From the NCBI GenBank assembly GCA_010093995.1, contig ML992513.1:286143-306142 (forward strand): DNA of 20,000 nt. The letters run 5' to 3'. Origin of the DNA: Elsinoe ampelina. Taxonomy: Eukaryota. Shown here one piece after another: positions 1 to 20,000 of the stretch. The position numbers were made by a program, and so were the translations under genes. Every line of letters starts with the position of its first letter. Position 1 is the stretch's first letter. The notes under the pieces are model-generated. The model was given only the letters and a program-made list of their open reading frames with translations, was not told the DNA's origin and made no database searches.

Positions 1-645
1 TTATGGAGAGACTTGAAACAACAATATACCATGTGGGCTTTGCACATGCTTGTCATTCCTCCATTAAGAGACGCGGCCCATTTGTTCTTGTTCCAACTAC
101 ACGAGCCAAGCGCTGCAGCATGCCTTCAAGAGATCATCGGTATGGGAACAGGAAGGATTGTTGATATTATACTGATCAATCCTGCAGAGGACCTGCGAAG
201 CTTCGCCTTCCTCCACCCCTTGGCCAGTTGTGTGATCAACTCATTGCACGAAGTCGCCATCAAATACCATATAGACTGTCCAAAAGGTCTATTCGAACGA
301 CACCTTCAAGACGCCAAAAACACAAACCTACCATCTCTCGGAACATCAGCATTCACCGTGCGAGCCAAAATCGACATCGAAACACCCACGCATCATCCCA
401 CCTATCCTTCTCAAGCGCAAGGTCAATACCAGCAGCAGCCGGCAAGTCAAGAGATGGGACAATACGGCGTGTTCAACCTCGCCATGCATCATCCAACCCC
501 AACCTACAGGACCACAACCGAGCGTGACTACCCGCAGTACTTTCCAGATCAGCAATTGAGCGGAGCCGTCATCCAGAGTGGCTACGAAATGATGCAGCCA
601 TACTCAGGCCAAGGACCAGGTCCACAACAACCACCAAGACCATGA
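1..645 (+). CDS. 3' part of a fungal protein-coding gene, 5'-truncated by the window edge; possibly the C-terminal region of a Zn2Cys6 / fungal-specific transcription factor; probable 48-nt intron at 140-187
   Basis: Frame 1 is open from base 1 to TGA at 643-645. GTATGG(140)...CTGAT...CAG(187) is a canonical fungal intron. Removing it gives ...AACLQEIIEDLRSFAFLHPLASCVINSLHEVAIKYHIDCP followed by a Q/P-rich low-complexity tail. The TF family call rests only on my recall of similar C-termini. Confidence 0.6.
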   Translation, partial: LWRDLKQQYTMWALHMLVIPPLRDAAHLFLFQLHEPSAAACLQEIIGMGTGRIVDIILINPAEDLRSFAFLHPLASCVINSLHEVAIKYHIDCPKGLFERHLQDAKNTNLPSLGTSAFTVRAKIDIETPTHHPTYPSQAQGQYQQQPASQEMGQYGVFNLAMHHPTPTYRTTTERDYPQYFPDQQLSGAVIQSGYEMMQPYSGQGPGPQQPPRP

Positions 646-1665
646 TCGACCATGCTGAGCCATCAGACAAGAACATCCGCCCGAACGAAAGTACGCATGG
701 GCAGAAACCTCCCCGACGCGTCCGCACGCAGAATTTCTGCACGTCGAAAAGAGCGGAGTGATAGCGTCCACACTCTTTCGTTAAGAAGAGTTGCGCTATA
801 CAGTAGTGTACATGGCAAGAACAAGGGTGCTCGCAGTACGAGAATCGGAAGATAGTTCATGAACCCAGAAGCCGTCGTCTTTCGCTCCGTCCCGGGCTGT
901 CTACCACGTATCCCAAAACTCAAAAAGTCACAACTCGTAACGATGACGCGCCGGTCGGGAAAGTTGCCATTGATGAGACGATGCACTTTGTCGGACCTGA
1001 CAAGCGGAGCTAGAGGGTATACGCAATCTCTGATTCACTAGTGAGGATCCGTACCACACGATCAAATCGTTTGATTCCAAAGTCACTCCCGAACACGGTC
1101 TTGTGAAACCACGTCCATAGGGATCCTTGCGCTGCGTCTAGCATGGCAGCGTACGTGAGCTCTGGGTGGTGAACCTCGCGGGTGATCGTTCCACGGAGCT
1201 TAATGCCTGTTGGGAATGCTGCTCGTGTGCGCTGCCTGTCGATGAACTCGGTCGTCTTCCTCGGGGCAGTAGCAGGCCGTGATTTGAGCTGCTCGGTTGG
1301 CTCTGATCGAAGTGCTGACATGTCTTGGACGGGGATGGGTCGTCGTATGTGGATATGGGTTGTGCTGTTTATCAATGTCGGCATCTATACGCGTGGCGGA
1401 CCGTGAGGGGGGTCCTCTTCGCTTTTCGGAATATGTTCGTGTGACTTTTAGACGGTTTATGGGTATTGGATCGTTGAGGATGAGACACTGTCGGGTGAAC
1501 AGCCTCGGTCGGCCAAAGACTAATTCTGACGTTTGTGTCATCATTCGTTGCTTTCTGTTTGGTCACGTACGCTGTGTGATACTACCAGGCATCTAAAGCC
1601 GACCACAAATCTCCTTCACAGACATGGTAATTGCACCGAGAAATCCTAGTCGCTCTTCTCGACTC

Positions 1666-3332
1666 TCAAATCGTCTCTACTCTCAACATAGCCGGCACCC
1701 CTTGCTGCAACCCAGCACTAACCCCACTCGTCCTACTCTCCATCCCCTCCGCATCCCCTCCCCTCTCCCTCAACGCCTCCTGTAAACTAATCACACTCCC
1801 CTCCTCTCCCCTTCCCCCCTCGTGGCCCCTGGCAAACACCCGCCTTATACCCCTCGCCAACCTACTCCCTCCCACAAACACCCCGTTCGTATTAAACACC
1901 TCCTCGATACCCTCCAAACTCAACCCCTTGGTTTCCGGCATGAACGACCACAGTAACACCACGCTCGTGAGGCAGAATCCGCCGAAGAGGAAATACGCCC
2001 CGTAACTACTCTCCGCTAGAAAGATAGGCGTGAGGATTGTGACGAGCCAATTCGTGAGGAACCCGATCCCCTGCGCGACGCAATTCGCCATGCTGCGCGT
2101 CTGGGGAGGTTGGATCTCGGAGGCGTAGATCTTGCCTACAATACCCCATGTGCAGCAGTAGGTCAGGCCGAAAATGAAGACGAGGGAGATGACGAGGAAG
2201 CGCGCGGGCGAGGTGGGGGTTATGGCGTTGCTGGCGTAGAGGGAGCCGATGAGCAGCATGCAGGTTGTGAGAATCAGGCCGCCGGTGAGGGTAATGGAGC
2301 GGCGGGTGAAGCGGTCGGTGAGGAGGAGGGCGGGGATGGTGATGGCGAACATGAGGATGGCGGAGACGCCGGACGCGATGAAGGAGGCGGTGGTGGCGGG
2401 GAGGCCGGCTTGAGCGAACAGGCGGGGCGCGTAGTAGAGGACGCCGTCGATACCGGAGAGTTGGATCATGCCGAGCATGATTAGGGCGAGGGTGGTGCGG
2501 GTGCGGTAGGGGGCGGAGAAGATGGTGAAGATGGCGGTGAGAGGGTTGGGCTGGGCGGTGATGGTGCGAGCGGCGGAGGGGCCGAGGAGATCCTTTTCGG
2601 CTTCGATAGGGGAGAAGTTGAGTCGTTCTAGTTGGCGGATGGCGTCAGAGCGGCGGGATTGGAAGAGCAACCAGCGGGGAGATTCAGGTAGGAGGTTGCA
2701 AATGATGGCGAGGAGAAGACCCATGCCGGCTTGGATGATGTAGATGGAACGGAAGGACCAGATGGAGTCGACCTTGACGGTGCCGTATGCAGTAAAGTAC
2801 CCACAACAGATGCCGAATACTACACCAAGTTGAGGAGTCGCCATGAGCATACCACGTCGCATTGACGGAGCGATCTCGGTGACGTAGACTGCTTGAGGGG
2901 CCATCCAGGTGCCCATCCCAATGCCGCCTATCGCACGACCAGCGAGGAAGATCGAAAGCTTCGGGGCCATTCCCTGCAGAAGAGCGCCAACGACGAAGAG
3001 GAGAGCACCAATCATGATCGCTCGTAGTCGACCGACATAATCCGCAAGCTGTCCAGCATAGATTGACGGGAATGCACCTGTCAGTAAGATCATCGATACC
3101 GTGAGTCCATGCATGAAAGGAGTGAGTTCGCCGAAGGTCTGATGGAAGTATGGCATTTCGGTCACTGCTCCGGCTGAGCCTGTATCGTAGCCATTGAGCC
3201 AACCTTTTGGCTGTCAGTAGACCGTCAAACGAAGCCCTCAAGGGCGTTCTTGCCTGCTACCGAGATGAAGCAAGTCGCGACCACATAGCCGGGAGGCTTG
3301 AATATCCTTGGGGAGACTACGCCGAATGTCAT
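1666..3332 (-). CDS. MFS sugar porter family transporter, ~538 aa, 2 exons (3332-3254 and 3203-1666)
   Basis: Sugar-porter motifs GYDTG, LADYVGR, EIAPSMRRG, PESPRWL, QLSGIDGVLYY, DRFTRR, SEIQP, PETKGLSLE and many hydrophobic segments. The frame extends upstream of the ORF-track start (GWLNGYDTGSAGAV). Exon 1 MTFGVVSPRIFKPPGYVVATCFISVA joins across a 50-nt intron to give SVAGWLNGYDTG. Confidence 0.93.
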
Positions 3333-3951
3333 CTTCGGCACCTTGTTAGCGACTCTAGACCAGGGAACAAATTGATCACCGAGATTTGGTCCTGGACGTT
3401 GTTCTCGAGATATGAGAGATACTTATCCTGACTCCGTCTCGTGGTTGTGAGAGATCGGCGAACAGTGGGCCGATAGCAATCTGACGCTGGAGGATTGTGA
3501 CTTCATTGCTTAACAATCAATTCACCAGCTCCTATCTGAGGGCGACGTTGGGAGCAAGACAGCCATTCATGCCATCGACAATGGCTGAGGTCCGTCGTCG
3601 CAGGGCAATAGTGGACTGTGTTAGAGTTTGCAGTAAGGTTTGAATTACTCTTGTCGAAGTGTGAATCAATTTGAATCACATGACTTCGCGTTTTTGTCAA
3701 CCGAGGCATAAGCTGGAGCGCTAAGAAGACCCTGAATCAGTTCATCCCAAGGTTGAACTAAACACTATCTTACTATTTTACTAATCCATGATCAAATTAG
3801 ATAATTATTGTCTTAATCTGCTACTATTAAGGAGTTCTTTTAATTTAGCTATCTTTTAGTATACTAGGTTAAGTATTTATATAGTTATAATCTACCTTAT
3901 TTTAGTAGTTTAGGTAGTAATTAATTCTTTTTCCTCCCCTATATAAATTAA

Positions 3952-3964
3952 TAGTTATAAGTCT
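3952..3964 (+). other. Putative copia primer-binding site (RIPed TGGTTATGAGCC, complementary to the tRNA-iMet anticodon stem-loop); implies a 5' LTR at about 3750-3951
   Basis: TAGTTATAAGTC differs from TGGTTATGAGCC only by three transitions and lies ~160 nt upstream of the gag start. The LTR termini cannot be fixed without the partner LTR. Confidence 0.5.
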
Positions 3965-4121
3965 AGTATAACTACCCTTATATAAGTATATTACTTAGTT
4001 ACTTTCCTACTCTATTTATTAGTTAATTCTCTACTATCTTGCTTTTTAAGTATTAGAATCTATTAAGAACTACCTTAACTATAACTATAGAATTTAGGTA
4101 TTAATAAAGGGATAAATAACT

Positions 4122-6046
4122 ATAGATACTAATACCTTAATAGCTAGAACACCTATTATTCTTGCTATATTAGCTAAATAGGCTAGCTAGCTATATATTA
4201 TTAAGATAAGAGTATTAAATACTAAGATATAGAACCTTATTAATCCCTAGAAAACTATTAAACTAGAAGGGCTTCCTAAGCCTTAGAGGCTAAAGGTAGT
4301 AAATACTAACTTCTTAGTATTCTTCTAGATATATAAGGAGGAATAAGCATAATATAACAAATAGTATAAGGCCTTAACTAATTTAGCTAGCCTTATTTAG
4401 TTATTAATTACACTATAAGTTCTTACTATTATCTAACTAGAAGGGGATCCTTATCTATAGGCTATCCTTAGAGTATTAAAGAATAGATTTACTCTATCTA
4501 ATATAGCTATTTAGCTTAAGGTTAAAGCACTCTAGAGGAAGTAGCTATCTAGCTCTTCCTTATAGAATATAGACTATTAGCTTTAGTAATAGAAAGAGGT
4601 TATAGANNNNNNNNNNNNNNNNNNNNNNNNNNNNNNNNNNNNNNNNNNNNNNNNNNNNNNNNNNNNNNNNNNNNNNNNNNNNNNNNNNNNNNNNNNNNNN
4701 NNNNNNNNNNNNNNNNNNNNNNNNNNNNNNNNNNNNNNNNNNNNNNNNNNNNNNNNNNNNNNNNNNNNNNNNNNNNNNNNNNNNNNNNNNNNNNNNNNNN
4801 NNNNNNNNNNNNNNNNNNNNNNNNNNNNNNNNNNNNNNNNNNNNNNNNNNNNNNNNNNNNNNNNNNNNNNNNNNNNNNNNNNNNNNNNNNNNNNNNNNNN
4901 NNNNNNNNNNNNNNNNNNNNNNNNNNNNNNNNNNNNNNNNNNNNNNNNNNNNNNNNNNNNNNNNNNNNNNNNNNNNNNNNNNNNNNNNNNNNNNNNNNNN
5001 NNNNNNNNNNNNNNNNNNNNNNNNNNNNNNNNNNNNNNNNNNNNNNNNNNNNNNNNNNNNNNNNNNNNNNNNNNNNNNNNNNNNNNNNNNNNNNNNNNNN
5101 NNNNCTATTCTATAGTAATACCTTACTTAGTATTAAGAGTTAAAGAACTATTAATATTATAGCTCTTTATAAAGGAAAGTCTATAACTATCTATCTTATA
5201 AAGGTAGCCTATATACTATTAATTATAACTAATCTAGTTAGCCTTAGGAGGTTTATTAATAGTAGAGTCTACTAGAACACTTAAACTATAGAGATTAGCT
5301 ATAAAGGAAAAGTACTCTTCTTAGTTATACTAAAGTATAACTAATATATCTTTAAGAATAACTCTAAAGCTTCTAATATTACTACTATAGTATTAAGGAA
5401 TAATAATAATTGTCTACTATTAGTATTTACTATAGTTACTATAAGGACTAATTAATCTTAGTATAAAGTTATAGACTATCTAAGCCTAGAGTCTATTAAT
5501 TACCTTTTAACTGCTATAGTTAGTAGTAAACTAACTCTAACTAAGCCTAGTTTAGCTTAACTAATTTATCTTAGGTCTCTATATTAGACTTATAAGCTAT
5601 TAAATACTTAGTAGATTATATTAAGAAGCTCTAACAATAAACTTACTATATTAAAGCTATTTAAGAGAACTACCTTTAATATTATTATTAATAGATTTAC
5701 TAGCTATAATAAGGTAAGATATATAAGCTACTTTACTTATAGGACTACTAACTATTAACTAGTTACTACTTATACTTATAGATATAAGATTAATAAAATC
5801 TATATTAAGATAATTACTTATATTAAAAGTAATTTTAGCTTCAAAATTAAATTCCTTAGAAGTAATAATAAGAGAGCCTTTAGCCTTAAATTTACTATCT
5901 TCCTAAATAGTAAAGAAATCTATTATAAGCTATCTACTTTCTATACTTAAGCTTAGAATAGTTATAATAAAAGGATAGAAGCTATACTATTAAGGAGAGT
6001 AAGGGCAATTACTATCTTTACTAATCTACTAAGGGAATTATACTCT
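4122..6046 (+). pseudogene. Copia gag-protease-integrase, 5' part (spans the assembly gap), RIP-inactivated
   Basis: Start ATA (RIPed ATG) at 4122. In-frame stops are TAG/TAA at positions that read as Trp/Gln in conserved motifs. Confidence 0.8.
4607..5104. other. Assembly gap (498 N)
   Basis: Run of N between the copia gag and protease segments. Confidence 1.
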
Positions 6047-6233
6047 TATTAAAGCCTTATATTAAAGCTATATATATCGTAATATAGAGAACGCCTATTT
6101 AACTAAATAGTCCGTTAGTAGTAGAACTAATTACTATTAAGCCCCGGGCGTAAGCGCTACGTAGGATATTTAAGTACATTATGTAAGCGGAACTAGCTAC
6201 TACTAAGTGCCGCTCTAATACTAAGCTCTTATA
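6047..6233 (-). repeat. 3' LTR of G1
   Basis: Ungapped direct repeat of 12551-12737 with 13 mismatches by my count, all transitions. Termini TA...TA are RIPed TG...CA. Confidence 0.95.
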
Positions 6234-6237
6234 ATTG

Positions 6238-6248
6238 CCTCCTCCTCT
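6238..6248 (-). other. Polypurine tract of G1
   Basis: Minus strand AGAGGAGGAGG ending 4 nt before the 3' LTR. Confidence 0.8.
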
Positions 6249-6671
6249 AGGAGAGCTATCCTTAGCTCTCGACCGGAAGTGTGTAATATATAGTATTATT
6301 TAGAGGTAATATAGGCGTAAGGTAGTTAAGGCATTTTTATAAAGGCCTCGTATATGTCTTATATAATGTCTAGTAGTAGTAGTCCTAGGAATCTAGTTCC
6401 TAGGGGAGCGTTTGTCTAGTCGCTATAGCGCTAAAGCTAATCGGCAGTAATAATATTACTTTTCTTAGAATTTCTAGTAGTATTATAGGAGATATACGCC
6501 TTGTGCTAGTAGCTATAATAAAGATATAGTACACTAGAGGTTAGTCTATATTATCTTATTATTCCCCCTTATGTTCTTCTTTTCTACCTAAAACACATTT
6601 ATATTTTATTAACCTCTTACTATATAAGTATACTACCTATAACTATTATATTATTTAACTCCGGCCCCCCT

Positions 6672-7443
6672 ATAGCTAACACTTATAGCGTAAGGTCTAC
6701 TAGCGCCTAGGGAGCTATTACTGCTAGCGCTAACTCTATAACTCTCTTACTTTCTAAAGAGAAGGCTAATACCTATACTAGGTATACTAATAGCGTCGCT
6801 AAGAGTAAGCTAATAGAGCTCTTATAAGGGACATAACTAATTTATAGTAGGTCGTGTCTATACTAGAGGTAACTTTAGTATCTTCTTCTATTATAAGTGC
6901 GAACACTACGCCTATAATAAGTATATATACGAGCTACTTCTATCTATCCTATATAACTTATACATCGACGCCTTTAACATAGTTACTAAGCTTAAGGCCC
7001 CCGACTAGGCCGGCATCACTGTAGCTAAGAAGTATATATATACTATAGCCTATAAGAACGTCTCTAAGGTTAAGAAGTTTAAGACTATACTTAAGGTATA
7101 CTACACTAATAAGAACAAGGTCGTTAGTAAGGTCTTAACTCCTCGTATAGGGCCTATAGGTAGCTTACTTAGTAGTGTTATACTTAAGCGTAAGAAGGTT
7201 AAGAAACTATAGAAGATTAGGTATAGCCTTTATAGCTTAATTACTATCGGCAAGGAGGTAAGTTAAACTATGCTCTATATGCGTTATAAACATAGCTAAT
7301 AGGTTTAGATAGTGCGTAACTCTAGTAGTTCTACTACTAAAATCGACTATATTATAGCTAGTAGGTAGCTTATAGCCCCTATAGCACCTATAGGGGAGAA
7401 TCTTAGTATAGAGGTAAACGAGGAGGATAGTAAGGATAAGTAG
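6672..7443 (+). pseudogene. Antisense accessory gene inside G1: 3 exons (6672-6804, 6851-7257, 7309-7443), ~224 aa, six-Cys cluster plus helical region plus acidic tail; RIP-damaged
   Basis: Only four in-frame stops (TAG at 6708, 7006, 7210, 7366) over 225 codons in TA-saturated DNA. Introns are GTAAGC...CTAAT...TAG (6805-6850) and GTAAGT...GCTAAT...TTTAG (7258-7308). Intron 1 repairs a frame change. De-RIPed pattern is C-x2-C-x9-C-x12-C-x2-C-x6-C, with one intact TGC and five TAT/TAC codons. Confidence 0.72.
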
Positions 7444-7641
7444 GCACATACGAGACAGGTGTACGTCCCTAGCGCTATACCTATAATAAGGCCTTATATA
7501 GAGCATAATAGAGCATAGAGTTTAGGTTAATACCCGTAATAGTAGCGCAAGTATAGCGCTTTATTAAAATATATTTCCCTAGGTAAGGAGTCTACTCTTT
7601 ACTCTATTTATATATTTATATAATCTATCTACTTATATACT

Positions 7642-10600
7642 CTATAATCTACGCCTTTAGTAACCTTTCTTAGCTACTCTTAGCTATAACTTGTATATAG
7701 TAATTAGCTCTCTTATATTTACGTAATTCTCTTTAGGTTCCTAGCTATTAAACTTAATAGGCTAGTCCTTCTACTTTACTAAGTAGAATACCTTACCCTT
7801 TGTAGTTCTCCTGCCTAGAATCTTCTCTACTATCTACTTATCTACTTCGTTAGCGAGAGGTATACTCTCTTCTAGCTCCTTACTAGCTTTACCTATCTAT
7901 AGTTTAAGAAGAGATATATAAAAGACATTATAGATGTAATACTAACTCAGTAAAGCTAGGTAATACGCCTATAATTTAATTGTGTCAAGTATATAGAATA
8001 GGCTAAGGAATTGTAGTTCTATCTTCTTCTTTAGTATAGGTAGCTATAAGTTCTTAGCCGAGAGTAGTACTAAGTTACCTATACTATATACCTTTAGTAT
8101 ATACTTCCTATTGTAGTACTTAGCCTAGTAGGCGGAAGCCTCTTTCTATTACTCTACTAGCTTCGTATATATGTCTTATAAGCGTTATACTAACTCTACT
8201 ACTACTAGTACTCTTCTCTCTAAAGTCTTGTCCCGAGACTTAATAGCTATTACCTCTAACTCTAGATAGTAGCTATATATTATTTAGAAGAGGCTTATAC
8301 GTAGTATAGTATAAACGCTATTATTGCTTATAAATTCCACTTGTAATAGACGTTCGGCCTAGTCGTTCTATAGCTCTATATAGTAGTACCTTAGGTACTA
8401 TTCTAACATCTAGTTTTACTACTTAGTTTAACTATCTATCTACGAGTAAAAGGCTATACTAAGCCTACGCTTTATATACGTTTCGTAACAGAATTTACTC
8501 TAGAACTAGCTAGTAAAGACCGATCCTCGATTGCTTACTATTCCCCCCTAGGACACTATAATAGCGAATAACGTAGTTATATAGAATCTCTGCTAGCTCT
8601 ATAGACGTGCACTTCTTAGTAGTAGGGATATATAGTAATATCTTAGTGTAATAGTCTACAATTACTAGTACTATATTATAGACGCTACTACCTCGCTTGC
8701 TCGGTAGTAGGTTAGTAATAAAATCTATTATAATTTCTTACTATAGGCGGTCTAGTATCGGTAGCGTACGTAGCTCGCTATAGAGGTAATAGTAGCGCGC
8801 CTTATACTTCTAGCAAACTTAGTATAACTATATATAGTTATTAATATCTTTTCTTATAGTTAGCTAGAAGTATTTCTATAATAGGAGCTTAAGCGTCTTA
8901 TCCTTACTAAAGTAACTAGCCTATTCGCCGTTATAGTATATACATAGTATCTATGCCTTAAGCGCGCTATTATTCGGAATAACTAGTAACTCTTTATAGA
9001 AGAGAAGATTATCTTATATATTCTATAGCGCTCTACTTTTGTCTCTACTACTCCCCGCTTATAAACGTAGCTTTATAATCTCGAAGTCTTATTCTTATAG
9101 TAGCTCTACTACTAACATTAGGTTAGTAGACGAATCTTTAAAGGGATCCTCCCTTATAGTTGCTATAACTACGACTCGCTAGGTCGTTATAAGCCTCTAG
9201 AAGTTCTTAAAAGAGAAGTTACTACTATACGGCGTATAGGTAGCCTAGGCCTGTCCTAGAGTAGCCTTGTATATAGCGTAGATATGTCTAATAAGCGGAG
9301 TAGCTTTCTTAACGTTAGTAGTCTAGTCCTATATATAAAGCTTGTTCTAAAGGGTAGAAAGGAGATATAATACCTCTTACTCTTCCGCTACGTAGTTAAG
9401 GCGCCTCGAGAGTGTATTAGCTAGGTTCCTCGTGCCTAGCTAATGCTCTATTATAAAGTTAAAAGCAGTAAGGAAGGTAGCCTAGTAAGCTTATTAGCTA
9501 TTTAGCTATTTTAGCTTTATAAATCCTTAGAGATTATTATAGTTAGTAAGTACTTAAATTATATATAAGGCACCTTCGAGGTAGTATTACTATTACTTAA
9601 ATATATATACAATTACTAATAGCTCTTAGTTATACATCTCGTAATTATACTTAGCTAGGATAAACTTCCTTAACTAAAAGGCTATTAGGTGCTAAGCACT
9701 ATTAAATAGTTAGGACAGAATCGCTGCTACTATAAACTTTAATATATTACTTTTAATATATAGGGGCAGCGTAGAATTATAGTAGCAGAGAATAGAGGTA
9801 CGCGTAAATATGTCTCTAATGTCCTTAAACGTCTACTATTTACTTACGCTCTACATAAAAGAGCTATACTTACGACCTTTTACTAAGCCTTTAAGGAGGC
9901 TAGAGAGGGGGGTAATAATCTTAGAGTAGTACTACACGAACTAATAATAGAAGTTTATAAAGCTAGTAAACTACTAGACCTTATAATAACTCTTTAGCCT
10001 CGGCTAATTCTTAATTATAGTTACTCTACTAGGATCTATTAAGACGCCTATAGTAGAGATAATATAGCTAAGAAATTCTACCTCCTTAGTAAAGAATTTA
10101 CATTTCTTAAGGTTAGTATATAAAGTAAACTTCTATAGCCTCGCTAGAATCTTATAAACGTAATATATATAGTTCTCTCTTAAATTGCTATAGATAAGAA
10201 TATTATCGAGGTAGACAATATAGATAGTATTAACTAGCTTACCTAGCGCCTTATTAATATACACTTAGAAGGTAGCTAGGGCATTAGTTAATCTAAAAGG
10301 CATAACTAAGTACTTAAAATAGCTATAGCACATACGGAATATAGTCTTCTACTTGTCGCTATACTTAATAGGGATCCTATAATAGGCATCCTTAAGATCT
10401 AGCTTCGAGAACTACTAGGCTTACCTAAGCTAATTAAGCGTCTTACTAATAAGTAGAAGCGGGTAGCGATTCTTAATAGTTACCTCGTTTAAGCCCTAAT
10501 AATTTATATATAAGTATAGACTACTATCTTTCTTAGGCACGAACAGGATAGAAGTACTTATCTCGCTTATAGAGCGCCTAATCTACCTATTTAATTAAGT

Positions 10601-11338
10601 AGCCTCGAGATAGTTCTTAAGTACTTTAAGCTCTTTAACTAAAAGATTATATAAGGGCTAAAATAGAGACCTTCTACCTAGCTCTAGCTTAATTACATAC
10701 TTAGCGCCTAGAGGGCGTAGTAGATTTATAATATCCTTATAGACAAAGACATCGAAGAACTCTATAAACTCTAATAGTAGAGCTAGGTCGTCTACGGCGT
10801 AAGTATAGTCCTTAGACAGAGTCTATACTATAGTATATACCCTCGGCTTGTTCTTAAGGTCCTTTATAAAGTCTTCTAGTTCGCGTAAGTAAACTATATA
10901 TAAGGAGTAGCTATACGACTAGTTGTCTATAGCGCTATCTATAATTATATACTATCTTCTCTACTATAGGCACTCTAAAATAACTAGAGGGCCTAGTCCT
11001 AAGTCTATAGCGTAGAAGAGGCTAATTGTCTCTCTAAGGTTACTATAGAAGTCTACTAGGCGTACGTAAAGCTAGTGCGCGCTATAGTAGAATTCGGCTT
11101 ACTCTATAAAGAAAGAGATACTTAGATACTAAGTATGCTTAACTCTTAGTAGATTATAACGAAGAGTAAATGCCTAAGACACAAGATTAACTTCTATATA
11201 ATTGTCTATAAGGAACGTATAGTTTTTGTGCTCTATAGGCACTATAATAGCGCTATAATAGGGCAGCGATAGATAAGTGTTAATTAGGAGAGAAGAAGGG
11301 CTTAGTTACGCTCTTTAGCTAAGCCCTTAGAGTTTCCC
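7642..11338 (-). pseudogene. pol: G1 pol (protease, RT, RNase H, integrase, chromodomain)
   Basis: FLIDN protease site (~11201-11215), FSKLDLKDAY (~10382-10411), IVYLDN = YLDD (10219-10202), integrase I(M)DFIT (~8715-8735), IVS(D)RGSVFTS (~8510-8540), RLSTAFHPQTDGQT de-RIPed (~8425-8470), chromodomain VEKILGRRTTKGKVFYLVK(W)KD(W)P...S(W)EP (~7735-7835). One extra base in a C6 run at 8543-8548 shifts the frame. The 3' end is approximate. Confidence 0.93.
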
Positions 11339-12510
11339 GACTTAGAGTTATTAGACTTGTCTATAGTAGTAACCTTATACACTGCCTAAGACTCGCTATT
11401 CTTCTATAGGTGCTTCGACTTATACTCCGGCTTAATATAACTAGTTTTACTACAACTATAGTACTTAGCGTTTCTCTTCTACTTATCGAAGGAACCTCCT
11501 TACCTACTAAACTATTTAGTAGGTAAGTTAGTAGCTTTACGCTTATAGTAAGCTTAAGAGCTACTACTAGACTAGTAGTAGTATTCTTCTCGAGAGCTAC
11601 TATAACTACTATACTTACGTAGGTAGTTACTTTTATCTTTCTATATAGTATACTTACTACTAGTATAGTCTATAGACTTAATACGTAAGCCTAAAGAGAC
11701 TAACTTCTAGCACGTAGCTAGAATAGTATAGTGTTTAATAATAGTAGTACGTAGCATAGGCTATAGCTTAGTAAGGAGATAGTATACCCTCTACTCTTTA
11801 GAGTAGAGAGCTAGTTACTTCTTAAGGGTAGTAAGTTCTAAGGCGAAGGCCTAGATAGATTAGCCCTTATATTGTTAGGCTCCCTTATATATAAGAGTTA
11901 TACGCACTCTACGATTAATAGGGTTATTAACTGCGTTCTATATAAACTAGCGGAATTACTCCTACGTATAGTCTTCTAGGCTATCTATATAGTAGTAGTA
12001 GTACTATATCTTATCTAGCTCGCCTATAAGGAATATAACTTTATATAGCACCTTCTACTAGTTAGTAGAATAAGCCTTAGGGGCTAGAGTAAAGATAACC
12101 TCGAGATTCTTTAGGAAGGATCTTACCTCTTTTAGAGTCTTACTCTAGTAGAGATAGAGTTCCCTTAATCGAGGTTGTCTAGAGAATAGCCTTACGAATA
12201 GTCCGCCGCTACTATATATACTCTATATGCTAGTATTACTTACTATAGGCTTAGTAGAAGCACGCGAGCTATAGTCGAAGCCTCCTTAGTAGTATTCTAT
12301 ATCGCGTATATAGTGTATTTACTTAATCTCTTCCTCGAGGCTCTAAGCCTTAAGCTTTAGCTCTAAATACTTATACTTAGCATATAGGTGTAGTAGCTAC
12401 TCCGTAAGGGTCTCTTCTTTCTCTAGGGGAGTCTACTCGATAGAGTCTATCTCTATAACATTAATTACGTAAGGTACTAGCGCCTCGCTAATAGAGTTCT
12501 AGTTGTCTAT
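11302..12510 (-). pseudogene. gag: G1 gag
   Basis: ATA (RIPed ATG) at 12510 is in frame with the zinc knuckle K[C]YSC[G]KT[GH]IKPE[C] (~11420-11466) and with the slippery site G GGA AAC. Stop TAA at 11304-11302. Confidence 0.82.
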
Positions 12511-12550
12511 AGAGTCTAATAGATTACAACTGTAGGGGAGTAATTAGAAC

Positions 12551-12737
12551 TGTTAAAGCCTTATATTAAAGCTACATATATCGTAATATAGAGAACGCCT
12601 ATCTAACTAAATAGTCCGTTAGTAGTAGAACTAATTACTATTAAGCCCTAGGCGTAAGCGCTATATAGGATATTTAAGTATATTATATAAGCGGGACTAG
12701 CCGCTACTAAGTGCCGCTCTAATACTAAGCCCTTATA
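12551..12737 (-). repeat. 5' LTR of G1
   Basis: Starts TGTTAAAGCC on the plus strand and matches 6047-6233. Gag begins 41 nt inside it. Confidence 0.95.
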
Positions 12738-12742
12738 ACTCT

Positions 12743-13480
12743 AAACTATATAGATTAGTAGCCTATCTAATTAATAGAATACCTCTTAAGAAGCTAGACT
12801 AAAAGACTCTCTTTAAGCTAGTTTATAGATGTCCTCTATTAGTTACTTATCTTAGGCTACTTAGATATAAAGCTTATACTTTAGATAAGCTTATTATAAG
12901 TAGTAATAAGCTTATACTAAGGGCTTATATTAGCTATCTAGTTAGCTATAACTTAACTAACATCTTTAGGATCTTTATATTAGCCTCTAAGAAGGTTATT
13001 AGAATAAGAGATATTAGATTTAATAAAACTTCGTTCTATAAGCTAGAGGAATAACCTTAGCTAAAACTAATTAGATTACTTAATCTACTAAGGCTCCTAT
13101 AGGAGGTTAATAAATCTAAAGGAGTATATAAAGCAGAGAGAATAACTAAACTAAATCTAGTTTAGAATCTAGTTTAGAATCTAGTTTAGAATCTAGTTTA
13201 GCATCTAGTTTAGTATCTAGTTTAGAATCTAGTTTAGAATCTAGTTTAGTAGCCGAACTAGATACTATCTTAGACTCTAAGTTAGAGTAATCTAGATTAA
13301 GAGCTAAGCCTATCTTAGTAGCTAGATAAGAGTTACCCTATTATACTAGATTAGTTACTACCTCTATTAGACTAATTAGAAAAGGCTATTCTAGATCTAA
13401 ACCTAGCTTAGACCTAGGAATCTTTACTAAATAAATAGTTCTTTAATGCTCTAGCCTTACTACTATCTATAGTAGTATAG
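12743..13480 (+). pseudogene. Copia integrase C-terminal half and IN-RT linker (continuation of 4122-6046)
   Basis: Removing G1 plus one TSD copy rejoins ...GAA TTA TAC TCT|AAA CTA TAT AGA TTA GTA GCC TAT CTA ATT AAT AGA ATA CCT in frame (LPRELYPE...AAYLINRTP de-RIPed). Confidence 0.9.
13154..13249 (+). repeat. 12-bp minisatellite, 8 copies of (A/C/T)ATCTAGTTTAG, inside the copia IN-RT linker
   Basis: Directly visible tandem array. In the integrase frame it reads N-L-V-stop, i.e. RIPed (N/H)-P-V-Q. Confidence 0.95.
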
Positions 13481-13943
13481 TGTTACGAACTAGTAGGATA
13501 GCTAGAACGTAGGGACGTTAGGACTAATTAAGCTACTAAGATTATTACGTAACCTGGCCCGACATTTACCCGGTTCTCTATCTTCTCTAGCGGCTCTACC
13601 TCTAAAACTATAGAGCGCGTAGGTTACTAGTAGACGTGTACTCTATATTGCCCCCGACTCTCGCTACGAAGTATATAGAGCATACGGAGAACATAATAGA
13701 GAACACATATATATAGGAATAGTCCTTACCTTATGTAAGTACTATAGTTAACCTCGTCTAGATAGCGAACACTAGTATTACTAAGGCTAGCCTTTATAAT
13801 ACTATCTAATTGTACTTTATTATCTATAGGATATACCTTCTCCGACTCTTACCTTAGTACTATACTACTATAGAAGTAGAACTCCCTCGTTCTTAGCTTA
13901 GCTTAGACTACTAGTGTAGACTGTATTTAGACAGTTCGTAACA
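13481..13943 (+). repeat. 5' LTR of G2 (463 bp)
   Basis: Perfect 11-bp terminal inverted repeat TGTTACGAACT...AGTTCGTAACA. The copia frame is cut at 13480 and gag ATG lies 117 nt downstream. The partner LTR is not in the window. Confidence 0.88.
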
Positions 13944-14059
13944 TTTTAACTACCCTTACTATAGTATAGCACGCTATAAGGTTAATAAGTAACTCTCGCT
14001 CTAAGTTACTATTAGCATCTTCGATTACTAGTAAGCTAGGAAAGCTTACTATTAACGAC

Positions 14060-16045
14060 ATGTCTACTACTAGTTTAACCTCGGGCGAATATAGAAGGTC
14101 TCTTAGTATAGGGGAAGGACGGAGTAAGCCTAAGTTAGAGGTAGAACTCTTCTATAGGGACCGTGCCTACTTAAGGCGCTTCCTTGTTTAACTTAAAGCC
14201 TTCTTCGCTCTAGAGGGAGACAAGTACGCTAACGACGTAGCAAAGGTCCTCTATGCCGGGATACACCTTAAAGGCGCCGCCTTTAGGTAGTTTAAGCCTT
14301 ATATAAGTGGCTACCTAGATAGATAACTAGGCCTAGATATAAAGGCTATCTTTAAGAGCTTTAGTATCTTCTAGGCAAAGATTAAGTAAGTCTTTAACGT
14401 ATCTAATAAGGAACATGTCGCTACGACAAAGATCTAACAACTACGACAACGTAGGTCTATAGCCTAGTACTATTTCTAGTTCTAATAACTCGTAATGTAC
14501 CTAGACTAGAATAATAGTACTAAACATTTAGTATTCTACTAAGGACTAAGCGACTTAGTTAAAGACTAAATGATACTCGAGCTACCTAATAGCCTCTAAG
14601 AACTAGTAGATACCGTAATTGCTATTAATAACCGACTTTATAAACGACGTATAGAACGTTATAGAGGATATAAGGCAAACACTAGATATACGCGTTCCTC
14701 CCGAAACTATAGAGACCCTATAGAACTTAACGCTATACGCGAAGGTTGCCCCTTATAGGTATAAGGCTAAAGTTGTAGAGGAAAGTTCCTTAGTAGAAAA
14801 GAGAGAGAGAAGTATAGATAAGACAATCTATGTTTTAAGTGTAAAAGACTTAGGCATCGAGCTAGGGACTACCGACAAGGGGTACTAGCTAATAGATTAC
14901 ATATAATAGTTACTAGGCTAGTAGAGAAAAAGGCCGACACTACTATAGAAGACCTAACGACCTTTAGCGTAGGTAAGGAAATATAGAAGAAGTCTACGAC
15001 AACTCGAGAGGTAATAGAATCCTCTCCGGATGTTACGCTTAATATCTCTATAACTAACAGCGAATAACAAAGTTAATACGCAACGCTATTATAGATAGCA
15101 TATTATAATAACTCTTATTATATTTACTTATTAGACAAGTAGGGATCTAGTTAGTTCCTATATAAGCTATCTAAGCGTAGGTAACTAACGAAATAGCTAG
15201 ACTAGGAACTTAACCTAGAAGAGCTCTCTATAATTAGTAGTAACAGTAACTAACCTTAGAAGGTAGTTAGCGACAATTACTAATATACAATTATCGAGAC
15301 GAAGTATTAGGACGCGAGTGCTATATAATAATATAGTAGCCTTACCTTTAGCCTTTATAGCGAACTATAAGGAAAGGCAAATTATATATCGCTCTAGAAA
15401 TATACAAATCTAGATTGCGAATAGTACTATACTATTTACTTACACGATGTACTTAGAGAAGAGGCTATTAGTCTTAAATATACTACGGACTTCTCGGTAA
15501 TTGAAATAGGTAGTACTATTCCCTATAGCTAAGTACGGGAATGTACTTAGTATAGCCTTACTAACTATAACTATACTAGAGATAGTAGCGACGAAGAGGA
15601 ATATAACGAAGAATATGCCGAACAACTATAATATAACAACATAGATAACAATTTATCTAATAACAACAATAACGTACTACTATCGGGCAGACGACTTAAA
15701 GTATACCTTATAGGGATATAGAGAAACTATATAATAATATACACCTATTACTAGAATAGAACATAACAAGACAAATCTACTTAACCTACTTTCGTCTTTA
15801 ATGCTAATACCTAGCTACACCTAGAGGGAATAGTTATACTAATATAAGTATATAACACTACTTAGTGTAACTAATAGAGGATTATCGAACTTTACGGTCA
15901 TTAAGGAACTTAAGCACTAGAAGTCTACCTTGCTATGTTAAACAATAATAAGACACGACTAGCCTAATAGGTATAATATTAATAATAGATACGTGCGAGA
16001 AGGGATTAACTACTTATCTAAGGCGCTATAATGACAAAAAACTAG
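14060..16045 (+). pseudogene. gag: G2 gag with a long C-terminal extension (~660 codons)
   Basis: ATG 14060; ELFY[G]DRA...LRRFL...KVLYAG...LKGAAFR[W]F capsid-type motif; zinc knuckle CFKCKRL[G]HRARD[C] at 14831-14872. The same frame ends ...ACA AAA AAC TAG at 16045. Confidence 0.85.
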
Positions 16046-19000
16046 CTAGTTATCGCCTAACAAGGCAAGACAATAACACTAGCTAAAGCCTTAATATAAT
16101 AAAGATCTACACGTTAAATTACTTTATACTAGAAGTTAAAATATAAGGGAGTAAGGTAAGAGTAATAATAGATTCGGGAGCTAACTAAAGCTACGTCTCT
16201 ATAATAGTTACTAATTAGCTTAAACCTTATTAACACTAGAAGGAGTTACCTTACCTACTTACTATAGCGGATAGAACCCCTATAGGGAAGGATAGGAAAG
16301 TTACTTAGGAACTACGAAACGTTATAATCTAAATCGAAACATATACGGAAAAACAATTAATCGATATAGTTAACATGTAGTATAATATAGTACTTAGCAT
16401 AGACTAGCTACAACAATATAACCTAGACGTGGACTAGATTAAAGAAACACTTGAATTTCCTAAGTGTAATTATAGAACGTAGGGAGCATAATTAGCTCTA
16501 TAGATACTAACTATAAGGACAGTATAGGTACGACTAATAGTTAGAGCTATCGCTAGCATAAGTAATTAAGTACTTCCGCTAGAATACAAAGACTTCGAGG
16601 ACTTGTTTAAAGAAAGAGAAGGCATTACGGCCTTACTCTAACATAAACTATAGAATTACGAAATACTCTTTAAAGAGAGTAAACCCCCGACACACTATTA
16701 AGGTCTTATACTACTATCGAAACAAGAGGAGGACGTCCTTAAGAACTATATTAATAAGTACTTACTTAAAGGATTTATACAACTATTAAAATCACCTATT
16801 GCGTACGGAGTGCTTTTTGTACCTAAAAAGGATAGAACGTTACGAATATATATTAATTACTAGAAACTTAATGCACTTACTAGGAAGAATTACTATCCTC
16901 TACTAAGGATCGACGAACTTTAAGACCGACTACTTAGAGCTAAATAGTTTACCGTAATTGACATTAGGGACGCCTATTATTAAGTATAAATAAAGGAGAG
17001 CAAGGAGTAGAAGACGGCTTTTAGGACATAATAGAGTCTATATAAGTACCTTATTATACCCTTTAGGTTAACTAATACTCCTATAACCTTCTAAGAGTTA
17101 ATTAATAACACTCTATAAGAATACCTTAATAACTTTATCTTAGTATATTTAGACAATATTATTATCTTCTTAAAGATATATAACAAACACGTAGGACATG
17201 TTCGTAAAGTGCTATAGAAACTAAAAGAAAAAGACCTACTAGTAAAACTCTCTAAGTATAAGTTCTATAAATATAAGATATAATTTCTAAGCTATATTAT
17301 ATCTACTAATAGTATCGGACTCGATCCGAAGAAGATTAAGTTAGTAAATAACTAGCCGGAACCTACGATAGTTAAGGAGGTTTAAGCGCTACTAGAGTTC
17401 TTTAACTACTACTATAAGTTTATAGAAGGATTCTCTAAGGTAGCTACGCTAATATCTAACCTTACGAAAAAGGAAACTAGCTTTGTCTTTAACGAGAGAT
17501 ATAGGTAGGCCTTTAAGGAGCTAAAGCTTAGGCTTATAATAGCACCTATCCTAGTACTCTTCGACCTAGACCGACAAGTACTACTAGAAATAGATGCCTT
17601 AGACTTTGCAATAGAAGCGTATCTAGCGTAGAAGAATATAGAAGGACGACGCTACCCGATCGTATACTACTTACGAAAAATGACTAGACCTAAACTTAAC
17701 TACGACATATACAATAAGGAATTACTTACGATTATAGAAGCGTTCTACGAATAGAGAGTATACCTAGAAGGGACAACCTTACCTATATAAGTCTATACCG
17801 ACTATAAGAACCTTCTATATTAGACAATAACTAAGGTTCTTAATAGACGACAGGTTCGATAGTTAGAAACACTTGTAAGCTATAACTTCTAGATCTACTA
17901 TATTAAGGGATTAGAGAATAGCGGAGTAGACGCTCTTAGCTGCCGGCTAGATTACTTAAAAAACATAACAATAATAGAGGCCTCTATACTAAAGTAGTAA
18001 GACGGCGCTTTAGTCTATAAGTACCTAAAGGTAAAGTAGTTATATAGCCTTACCTAGGAGCTTACGTAAGAACAGAAAAAAGAAGTTATTTAAATATACT
18101 ATAATAACCTAACTATAGGACATAGTAGGATTAATAAGACTATTAAACTTATTATACGAAACTACCTCTAGAAAGAACTCCAAAACGATGTTAAGATGTA
18201 TATCGCTATATACGATATATACTATAAGTCTAAACACTCTCGATATAAACTATATAGCCTACTATAACCCTTGCTACTACTAGACAAACTATAGCAATCA
18301 GTTACGATAGACTTTATAGGACCTCTACTACTATTAGAAGAACCTCTTATAGGTATAAAGTACAATAGTATTCTAGTCCTAGTAGATAGGTTTACGAAGT
18401 ATTACTACTTTATACTATATAAGACAATAGTAACCGCCGAGAATATAGCCTTTACCTTCCTCCGAATAATTGTTTTATAACATAGAGTACTACGAGACCT
18501 AATAACTAACAGGGATAAGCTATTTACGTCATAATTCTAGTAATTATTTATAGACCTACTAGGAGTTAAACATAAGCTATTAACCTCCTTTTACCTATAA
18601 ACGGACGGACAAACTAAATAGGCAAATTAAGTACTAGAGTAGTACCTACGATGCTACCTAAACTATAAGTAAGACTTATAGGCGACGCTATTACTACTCG
18701 TAGAGCTCGCTATTAACAATAGAAAGTTAGTAAATAGAATTTTACTATTCTATATAAACTATAGAATATACCTGGATCTATACTATAACACACTTAGAAT
18801 TAAGCTAGTATCTAAGGATGCTAATATACTAGTAGCTAATATTAAGAAACTATATAACTAGCTATACTACGATATAGTATTTATATTACAAAGAATAGCA
18901 AAGTTTGCTAACTAGAAGAGAATTACAGGACTAATTCTATAGAAGAGAGAGAAAGTTTACCTCCTTAGTAAAAATATTAAAACGAAATAACTAAGCAAGA

Positions 19001-19415
19001 AACTTAACTATACTAAACTAGGACCCTTTAAGATCCTAGAAAAGAAAAATAAGAATATATACAAACTAGAACTACTAAGATATATAAGGATCTACCTAGT
19101 CTTTTATATATTACTACTAAAGAAAGTACTATAGAATGCTATACCTAGACCTATTAAACTAGATAAAGAAACATAGGAGCCATAGTATAAGATTAAAAGG
19201 GTTTTACGTTATAAACTTATAAAAGGAAAACGCTACTATCTTATTTACTAGAAGGAACATTAGTATAGCGAAGTAACATAGGAACTAGAGAAGCACCTTA
19301 CCTCGTAAGTAATTCTAGATTACTAGATCGAGAATCTATCCTAAGTAAACTAACTAGACAGACCTAGCACTCTAAACACTAAATAAAAACGAGAATACTT
19401 AAGGAAGACTACTTA
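16036..19415 (+). pseudogene. pol: G2 pol (protease, RT, RNase H, integrase, chromodomain)
   Basis: IDSGA (16168-16182), IDIRDAY (~16957-16977), YLDN = YLDD (17146-17157), LE[T]DA[S]DFA (~17584), NYDI[HD]KELL (17698), T[M]DF (18304), FHPQTDGQTE de-RIPed (18589-18618), GPF (19021), chromodomain Y[E]I[E]RVL...YLI[HW]KE...T[W]E[P]EKHL (19186-19299). The motifs I frame-checked share one frame. The end is approximate. Confidence 0.95.
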
Positions 19416-19961
19416 ACTAACAGGAGCGCTCTAATTATTACTAAATAAGGAACCTTAATTAGAGTCGAGCATAAATAACTACTAATCCTATAGTAGAACG
19501 GGATCTACCGACAATAGTATTTCCTCTTACTCTAGAACTTAAATACGGGTTTCCTCTAGAGAGATTACTTTCTCCGCCTTGTTCTCTAACTTTTATATCT
19601 CTTTACATAGGTAAAGCTTATTGCCTATAGCTCTTTAATAAGCCTCTTTTGCCTTTTTATAAGCTTCTTTAGCTTCCCTTCTAGTAGCCTTAGCTATAAC
19701 TAATTCCTTTCGTAAACGAATGTACTTAGACTAGAGACACTACTATTTTAATTTTGTTACTTAAATATTATAACTCGAGTAATTACTTACAACACACTAG
19801 CTATAGATACTCGACCGAACATAGACCTTATAGTCTAGCCCCTTCGATTTGCAACGAGAATAAGCCTATAGTATATTAGTTCTAAATAGTTTAATAAACT
19901 CTAAGAGATTCTTTCGTATAGATGTGCTAGATTCGCTATGCCTTTAACAACTAGGAGGCAT
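19413..19961 (-). pseudogene. Antisense accessory ORF inside G2: Zn2Cys6-like cluster plus coiled coil, ~180 aa; RIP-damaged
   Basis: Intact ATG at 19961 (MPPS...). 19862-19770 reads [C]SRCKSKGLD[C]KVYVRSSI[C]S*CVVSNYSS[C], where each [C] is TAT (TGT after RIP reversal), giving C-x2-C-x6-C-x8-C-x2-C-x7-C. An A/E/K/R-rich helix follows (RLRKELVIAKATRREAKEAYKKAKEA...KLENKAEKVISLEETRI). The stop position is approximate. Confidence 0.8.
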
Positions 19962-20000
19962 ATTTAGTACATAGCGCGTAAAGACAAGAAAGAATACTTA

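Follow-up and report, generated by a model that had tools for sequence, protein, structure and literature searches.

The extra genes carried by some LTR retrotransposons are the nearest equivalent of the accessory genes of retroviruses, and to our knowledge none of them has a known function. It is well established that introns lying antisense to an element's RNA persist through retrotransposition, and in antisense-intron reporters such as Ty1his3-AI the intron opposite to the element's RNA is not removed and survives retrotransposition. The message of the antisense gene HBZ of HTLV-1 is itself spliced. In the part of PMC7264820 drawn on here, the antisense promoter of HBZ is placed in the 3' LTR. 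Among plant elements, excerpts of PMC7264820 and PMC11963269 describe antisense extra open reading frames located between pol and the 3' LTR (aORF-3R), including Grande gene23, that of RIRE2, Retand ORF4/TRP28 and PvRetro13 ORF2; a nuclear, DNA-binding regulatory role has been proposed for their products, and gene23 was shown to have its own promoter. The available main text of these two articles does not contain the word 'intron'. In fungi, passages of PMC7264820, PMC8365987, PMC4227169 and PMC5987419 report the gene brtn, antisense between pol and the 3' LTR of the Botrytis element Boty, and it is the only fungal example named in the excerpts of PMC7264820, PMC8365987, PMC4227169, PMC5987419 and PMC11963269. 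The extra ORFs of Botrytis elements are presented in Fig. S1 of PMC8365987, which, judging from the text that cites it, may bear on the frequency of such genes. In another class of element, antisense homing-endonuclease genes with spliceosomal introns are described inside nuclear group I introns (excerpt of PMC9548176).

For Boty and several plant elements, antisense genes located between pol and the 3' LTR have already been published, which makes the idea of such a gene less new. The small gene analysed here fits this known kind (brtn, Grande gene23): it occupies positions 6672-7443 on the plus strand, with pol reaching 7690 on the minus strand and an LTR at 6049-6234, the placement by which an aORF-3R is recognised (PMC7264820). 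We consider it likely that this segment is an accessory gene of one chromovirus lineage, built of three exons, lying antisense between pol and the polypurine tract (PPT), and killed by repeat-induced point mutation (RIP).

RIP introduces C to T and G to A changes into repeated DNA. In the window, by which we mean the whole stretch of 20,000 nucleotides that was analysed, a GC-rich part (1-3500, 51-60% GC) gives way to AT-rich DNA with a GC content of about 30-39% and the TA-rich look typical of RIP. The switch to RIP-type DNA falls at about 3000-4000, and the GC-rich flank contains an intact sugar transporter of 515 aa (1666-3213, minus strand; Pfam Sugar_tr 6.9e-79, MFS_1). Within the AT-rich region, an assembly gap of 498 N (4607-5104) explains the apparent GC content of 13-17% and the 'ORFs' in all six frames at 4553-5162.

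The carrier of the small gene is a RIP-mutated Ty3/Gypsy chromovirus on the minus strand, with an LTR pair, the domain order RT-RNase H-integrase and a C-terminal chromodomain. Similarity between the LTRs outside the ends 6049-6234 and 12553-12738 was looked for and none was found. Our Pfam scan of the minus strand between the LTRs, with stops read as X, gave matches above cut-off in pol for RVT_1 (3e-19), RT_RNaseH_2 (6.7e-11) and Chromo (1.4e-05), and RT_RNaseH was matched as well; Integrase_H2C2 and SH3_Tf2-1 scored just under the cut-off, and SH3_Tf2-1 and Chromo are read after the one frame change in this RIP-mutated pol, near 8543. In a search with 8201-11203 (minus strand, stops as X), 200 proteins reached E <= 1e-10 among 7998 candidates scored, the top match being P0002, 'Transposon Tf2-5 polyprotein-like protein 3 [Elsinoe fawcettii]' (E 7e-264, 49% identity; 39% for the runner-up). 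This protein of 1198 aa carries all pol domains of the chromovirus and is colinear with its pol: from 11215 to 7690, aligned to residues 2-1176, 577 of 1175 positions are identical and 969 are identical or RIP-compatible, that is, differing in a way explicable by C>T or G>A alone. The features of the carrier are as follows.

12553 to 12738, minus strand: 5' LTR, 186 nt, from repeat comparison
7690 to 11215, minus strand: pol (RT, RNase H, integrase, SH3, chromodomain), from Pfam and alignment to P0002
7690-7833, minus strand: chromodomain, from Pfam Chromo
6249 to 6671, plus strand: spacer preceding the antisense gene, where its promoter and 5' UTR are presumed to lie, from position only
6238 to 6248, minus strand: putative polypurine tract AGAGGAGGAGG, three bases from the 3' LTR, its function suggested by position
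6049 to 6234, minus strand: 3' LTR, 186 nt, 93.5% identical to 12553-12738

The pol-to-PPT spacer measures ~1.4 kb. P0002 ends 22 residues beyond the point aligned to 7690, and the pol stop should therefore lie near 7625, about 180 nt from the stop of the small gene at 7443, so that the two genes converge. The sequence-only reading had placed the small gene between the end of the chromodomain and the PPT; its antisense position between pol and the PPT holds, but the PPT is at 6238-6248 and not near 6570. A second purine-rich tract on the minus strand, AGAAAAGAAGAACATAAGGGGGAA, occurs at 6560-6590, inside the spacer and upstream of the start of the small gene. The part of the spacer at 6249-6671 has no open frame and no Pfam match. 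An origin of the segment from a nested DNA transposon was rejected, since it is not flanked by convincing terminal inverted repeats (the best pair has 27-nt arms, 70% complementary).

About 100 nt beyond the 5' LTR of the carrier is a remnant of the integrase of another retroelement (12842-13039, plus strand; SH3_retrovirus, E 2.7e-4, below cut-off), and the chromovirus may have inserted into an older element. A tandem array of eight copies of the 12-nt unit AATCTAGTTTAG (96% matches) follows at 13154-13249, and 14261-19302 on the plus strand belongs to a second Gypsy element, likewise RIP-mutated and from a different family, with Retrotrans_gag at 14261-14551 and pol pieces 35% (16555-17955) and 27.5% (18076-19302) identical to P0002. 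A tblastn search of this second element with P0001, the E. fawcettii relative of the small gene described below, found no relative there.

As the sequence-only reading had proposed, removal of two introns from 6672-7443 leaves a plus-strand frame of 224 codons plus a terminal TAG, with four internal stops, all TAG, at 6708, 7006, 7210 and 7366. The predicted parts of the gene are these.

6672 to 6804, plus strand: exon 1, starting with ATA; Cys positions 1 and 2 (now TAT); TAG at 6708
6805 to 6850, plus strand: intron 1, 46 nt, GTAAGC ... CTAAT ... TAG
6851 to 7257, plus strand: exon 2, Cys positions 3-6 (TAT, TGC, TAC, TAC); helical middle; TAG at 7006 and 7210
7258 to 7308, plus strand: intron 2, 51 nt, GTAAGT ... 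CTAAT ... TAG
7309 to 7443, plus strand: exon 3, TAG at 7366; acidic end; terminal TAG at 7441-7443

The window copy of the small gene is dead, with an ATA start, four stops and five of the six cysteines lost; RIP can turn ATG into ATA. Its absence from the list of ORFs, already remarked on, is borne out, as no plus-strand ORF of at least 80 aa is listed in the region. The frame of exon 2 is nonetheless open to an extent that is more than chance: it has two stops in 135 codons, against a mean of 14.1 and a minimum of two in 28,194 intervals of equal size taken in six frames over 5500-20000, and is thus tied for the lowest count. The sole other locus with two stops in 135 codons, at 12635-13039 (plus strand), is the SH3 tail of the integrase of another retroelement.

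Both introns show, in their sequence, the features of fungal spliceosomal introns (GT donor, CTRAY branch, YAG acceptor, a length of ~40-80 nt and a colinear protein), and the signals named in the sequence-only reading can be read directly. Intron 1 changes the frame, and its removal is needed to join two frames, again as claimed; intron 2 is in frame but contains four stops. The end of intron 1 has tandem TAG acceptors 3 nt apart (6845-6847 and 6848-6850), either of which keeps the frame, and the downstream one, giving the 46-nt intron, yields the x9 cysteine spacing of P0001. A strict intron-like pattern occurs four times on the plus strand and three times on the minus strand in 14.5 kb, two of the four being introns 1 and 2; this count would predict about 0.2 in 772 nt. 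Intron-like patterns also appear by chance in RIP-rich DNA, and one lies on the opposite strand within the small gene (7106-7168), so that splice signals alone are insufficient.

The strongest link to a protein comes from Elsinoe fawcettii. A phmmer search with 6850-7443 (plus strand, stops as X) against 1,835,955,588 representative proteins returned P0001 as the sole protein at E <= 0.001 (E 2.1e-4, 34% identity, query 3-133). It is an intact hypothetical protein of 213 aa from automatic annotation. The sequence-only reading had restored a six-cysteine motif, C-x2-C-x9-C-x12-C-x2-C-x6-C, from the damaged frame, and P0001, which has not undergone RIP, carries exactly this motif at residues 31-67. 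The six inferred Cys codons of the window (TAT, TAT, TAT, TGC, TAC and TAC at 6774, 6783, 6859, 6898, 6907 and 6928) have the same spacing of x2, x9, x12, x2 and x6, and five of the six P0001 cysteines align to Tyr codons; TGY to TAY is a standard RIP change. The TAG at 7210 aligns to the Gln in LQKIR of P0001. The unmutated relative that the sequence-only reading had suggested seeking therefore has Cys at all six positions and Gln at one TAG. The predicted acidic end also has its counterpart, as both proteins finish in an acidic run, which in P0001 consists of Gly, Glu and Asp.

In the pairwise alignment of the window frame with P0001, 46 of 142 positions are identical, and tblastn of P0001 against the window matched 6850-7248 in one frame (44/134 identical, E 2e-09), the frame of exon 2 remaining unbroken across five gap positions. 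The spliced model is colinear with P0001 over both junctions, and the 46 nt and 51 nt of the introns have no counterpart in it; aligned to residues 25-185 it scores 129, compared with 26.7 +/- 4.3 for shuffles (maximum 43 in 500). Over the whole small gene, 51 of 159 positions are identical and 98 are identical or RIP-compatible, while permuted P0001 partners gave 31.2 +/- 4.7 (maximum 47 in 2000). By exon, the identical or RIP-compatible positions number 9 of 16 in exon 1 (residues 25-40, four identical), 80 of 127 in exon 2 and 9 of 16 in exon 3, where the alignment is weak (four identical); for exon 1, random partners gave 3.3 +/- 1.6, with 0.2% of 5000 draws reaching nine. Under BLOSUM62, which penalises Tyr versus Cys, the score goes only from 121 to 128 when exon 1 is added and only from 128 to 129 when intron 2 is taken out; intron 2 and exon 3 are therefore less supported than intron 1.

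The same comparison could also be read as homology of DNA between pol and the PPT that is conserved as a spacer and codes for nothing, the E. fawcettii frame being a chance ORF in GC-rich DNA called by the annotation pipeline. Consistent with this, phmmer and the word-based searches yielded one relative only, P0001 has no known domain and a poor predicted fold, it is rich in Ala, Gly and Glu like translations of GC-rich non-coding DNA, and the small gene is less conserved than pol (62% versus 82% RIP-compatible); the similarity of the two known members could indeed partly reflect homology of spacer DNA and not selection on a protein. However, even after heavy RIP no frame in the AT-rich part of the window has a lower density of stops than this one, every alignment gap in exon 2 preserves the frame, and both stretches that break the colinearity bear full intron signals. 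The conservation is also blocky, with the six cysteines, GNFS, TNKNK and KVK-L-KIR standing out between variable stretches, and the Atlas recognition value of 2403 exceeds the 2300 mark, reached by only 9 of 100 shuffled proteins; this is weak evidence. We regard a mere spacer as rather unlikely.

The reading that the minus strand is the coding one, with pol continuing C-terminally into the region and the plus-strand frame as its mirror image, was rejected as very improbable and already contradicted. The chromodomain frame is fairly open in places (a 94-aa ORF at 7237-7521; four stops in 135 codons at 6961-7365), but P0002 terminates soon after the point aligned to 7690, the chromodomain frame has eight stops from about 7690 to 7521, and the only database relative, P0001, matches the plus strand.

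Wider searches for the antisense gene extended over several collections. A word-based protein search with the RIP-damaged frame returned none of 515 candidates at E <= 1, and with P0001 it returned P0001 itself alone among 1476 candidates (proteins of 117-373 aa). Scans of metagenome and viral contigs with the alignment of the window and P0001 gave 589 and 138 pattern matches, of which none was confirmed. A degenerate-motif scan of metagenome contigs gave 25 loci, all of them rejected as chance matches; the best of these metagenome loci, L021, has 19 aligned residues, mostly forced by the pattern, and nothing beyond them. Megablast of the element against a plasmid collection, which is ill-suited to such an element, gave no match. 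A caller that lacks an intron model misses a three-exon gene, and the rarity of the protein in databases therefore says little about its true spread.

The association of the small gene with this pol lineage probably extends to E. fawcettii. P0002 and P0001 have consecutive GenBank accessions (KAF4546986.1 and KAF4546987.1), and each is on one contig, with a reported size of 18,192 bases for both; they are therefore probably neighbouring genes on one E. fawcettii contig. The sequence-only reading had supposed that the gene travels with the element, and this is supported, at the level of sequence, by the accession of the closest pol standing just before that of the closest small gene.

Two DNA runs of one sample (X1 and X2), searched for contig pieces of at least 80% likeness, yielded 1781 and 1205 matching pieces; the share of element copies that hold the gene is not countable from contigs. 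The pieces of both runs span 30 of 30 bins of 6000-7800, which indicates that the family is repeated and that diverged copies hold the segment, covering it throughout. In X1, 210 places vary, 204 of them by transitions. The only one of the six Cys codons that survives in the window (TGC at 6898) has A at 6899 in other copies (six contigs in X1, five in X2), so the family itself shows RIP converting Cys to Tyr. The sole indel listed among other copies is 1 nt at 7277, in one contig, inside intron 2. The outcomes that had been named as telling against a gene, namely stops or tyrosines kept in a consensus, splice signals that are not conserved and a segment absent elsewhere, did not occur. Among the contigs there are also variant copies with a 63-nt skip (7393-7457; one contig each in X1 and X2) by which exon 3 loses its end together with its stop, and a variant with a 200-nt skip in the spacer (6268-6469; one contig in X2). 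At eight CG dinucleotides kept in the window (6274, 6662, 6797, 6853, 6900, 6966, 7011 and 7144), most other-copy contigs have TA; at these sites, within 6274-7145, relatives changed both bases and the window copy retained CpG.

The same association bears on whether the gene is a passenger, that is, a cellular gene transduced into the ancestor of the lineage and merely carried, with no role in the life cycle. Capture of cellular sequence is one of the origins proposed for extra ORFs in the consulted parts of PMC7264820 and PMC11963269, and the closest clusters in the Atlas consist of hypothetical proteins of Ascomycota (0.91), which are leads only. Nevertheless, the link to pol is kept in two lineages with pol proteins merely 49% identical, the segment is present across diverged copies, and neither phmmer over 1,835,955,588 proteins nor the word-based search found a free-standing cellular homologue. 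Origin and present function are, moreover, separate questions, and this reading overlaps with that of an accessory gene. As an account opposed to it, we judge a passenger improbable.

The product of the accessory gene, as deduced from the two sequences, would be a protein of about 210-225 aa with an N-terminal six-cysteine motif, a helical charged middle and an acidic tail. The sequence-only reading had called the middle helical and rich in Lys and Ala; its helical, charged character stands, but part of the Lys richness comes from RIP, as Glu or Arg of P0001 align to AAG or AAA codons in the window. The protein family appears to be new: hmmscan of P0001 against Pfam at E up to 10 gave only Imm5_like (0.013, under cut-off), Pfam had no match on the plus-strand frames of the small gene, and a sequence search of the PDB with P0001 gave no matches. 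AlphaFold2 on the single P0001 sequence produced a low-confidence model (mean pLDDT 43.5) with predicted helices at residues 72-89, 97-129 and 149-172, and a prediction of a P0001 homodimer with zinc scored 0.02, which carries no weight either way. The nearest ESM Atlas clusters are unnamed Ascomycota hypothetical proteins (0.90-0.91) and DUF3716 appears there at 0.78, on 28% of the members of one cluster; both are leads only.

The six-cysteine motif probably binds zinc. The Zn(II)2Cys6 cluster has the spacing C-x2-C-x6-C-x5-12-C-x2-C-x6-8-C. Membership of this class was considered and set aside: four of the five spacings fit, the first loop being 9 instead of 6, and neither P0001 nor the window frames match the profile (Zn_clus PF00172). 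The overall layout is nevertheless like that of Gal4-type factors, with N-terminal Cys6, helices and an acidic tail, although membership of Zn(II)2Cys6 is unsupported. This combination of a Cys module, modelled helices and an acidic tail could point to a small regulator acting in the nucleus. Relying on composition and analogy only, we tentatively propose, as one possible role, that of a small nuclear protein binding nucleic acid or chromatin and regulating the expression of the element or the fate of its cDNA. More speculatively, and in our view doubtfully, the lineage might be a 'complex' retroelement whose antisense, intron-protected gene encodes a miniature Gal4-like trans-acting regulator, composed of a zinc module with six Cys, a helical region and an acidic tail for activation, that would switch on or tune the LTR. 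If true, this would represent a fungal counterpart of the retroviral transactivators together with a previously unrecognised zinc-module family.

Under the accessory-gene reading, the small gene, situated antisense to gag-pol in the interval that separates pol from the polypurine tract, would be transcribed separately and spliced, as predicted, into three exons by removal of two short spliceosomal introns. Its transcription, which would converge on pol, would require a separate promoter situated within the 423-nt spacer or the 3' LTR. Being antisense to the genomic RNA of the element, the introns could not be spliced there, and they would therefore be copied through reverse transcription and persist. 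Natural antisense introns would in this way be a built-in mark of separate transcription. The distinctive and testable layout of the protein adds to the usefulness of the small gene, and E. fawcettii can be cultured, so expression and function could be tested on its apparently intact copy. A RIP-aware reading recovers a gene missed by ORF finders, by annotation pipelines and by callers that have no intron model.

Compared with the systems described above, the closest parallel is Boty, which, according to the excerpts cited for brtn, is likewise a fungal chromodomain-bearing Gypsy element with an opposite-strand gene between pol and the 3' LTR, and brtn, like the small gene, was overlooked by genome annotation. 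The host class differs, as judged from the E. fawcettii relative, and neither the word-based search with P0001 nor phmmer, whose query was RIP-damaged, gave a BRTN-like match, in a comparison that is indirect and draws on the presence of BRTN in public databases. The plant aORF-3R share the position and orientation of the small gene and, in the passages available from PMC7264820 and PMC11963269, are present in most copies of their families and have no clear database relatives; unlike it, they are reported there from lineages outside the chromoviruses, whose spacers are much longer (2.9-6.6 kb in Retand), and their proteins are unrelated to that of the small gene. HBZ of HTLV-1 would resemble it in lying antisense at the 3' end of its retroelement, in having a promoter of its own and in encoding a nuclear regulator through a spliced message, but belongs to a vertebrate retrovirus and encodes a bZIP protein that is not homologous. 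Ty1his3-AI is an engineered marker, whereas the small gene is natural. The antisense homing-endonuclease genes, as described in the part of PMC9548176 consulted, are likewise antisense protein genes of mobile elements with small spliceosomal introns, although the class of element and the protein are different. Beside brtn, the small gene adds a second fungal case.
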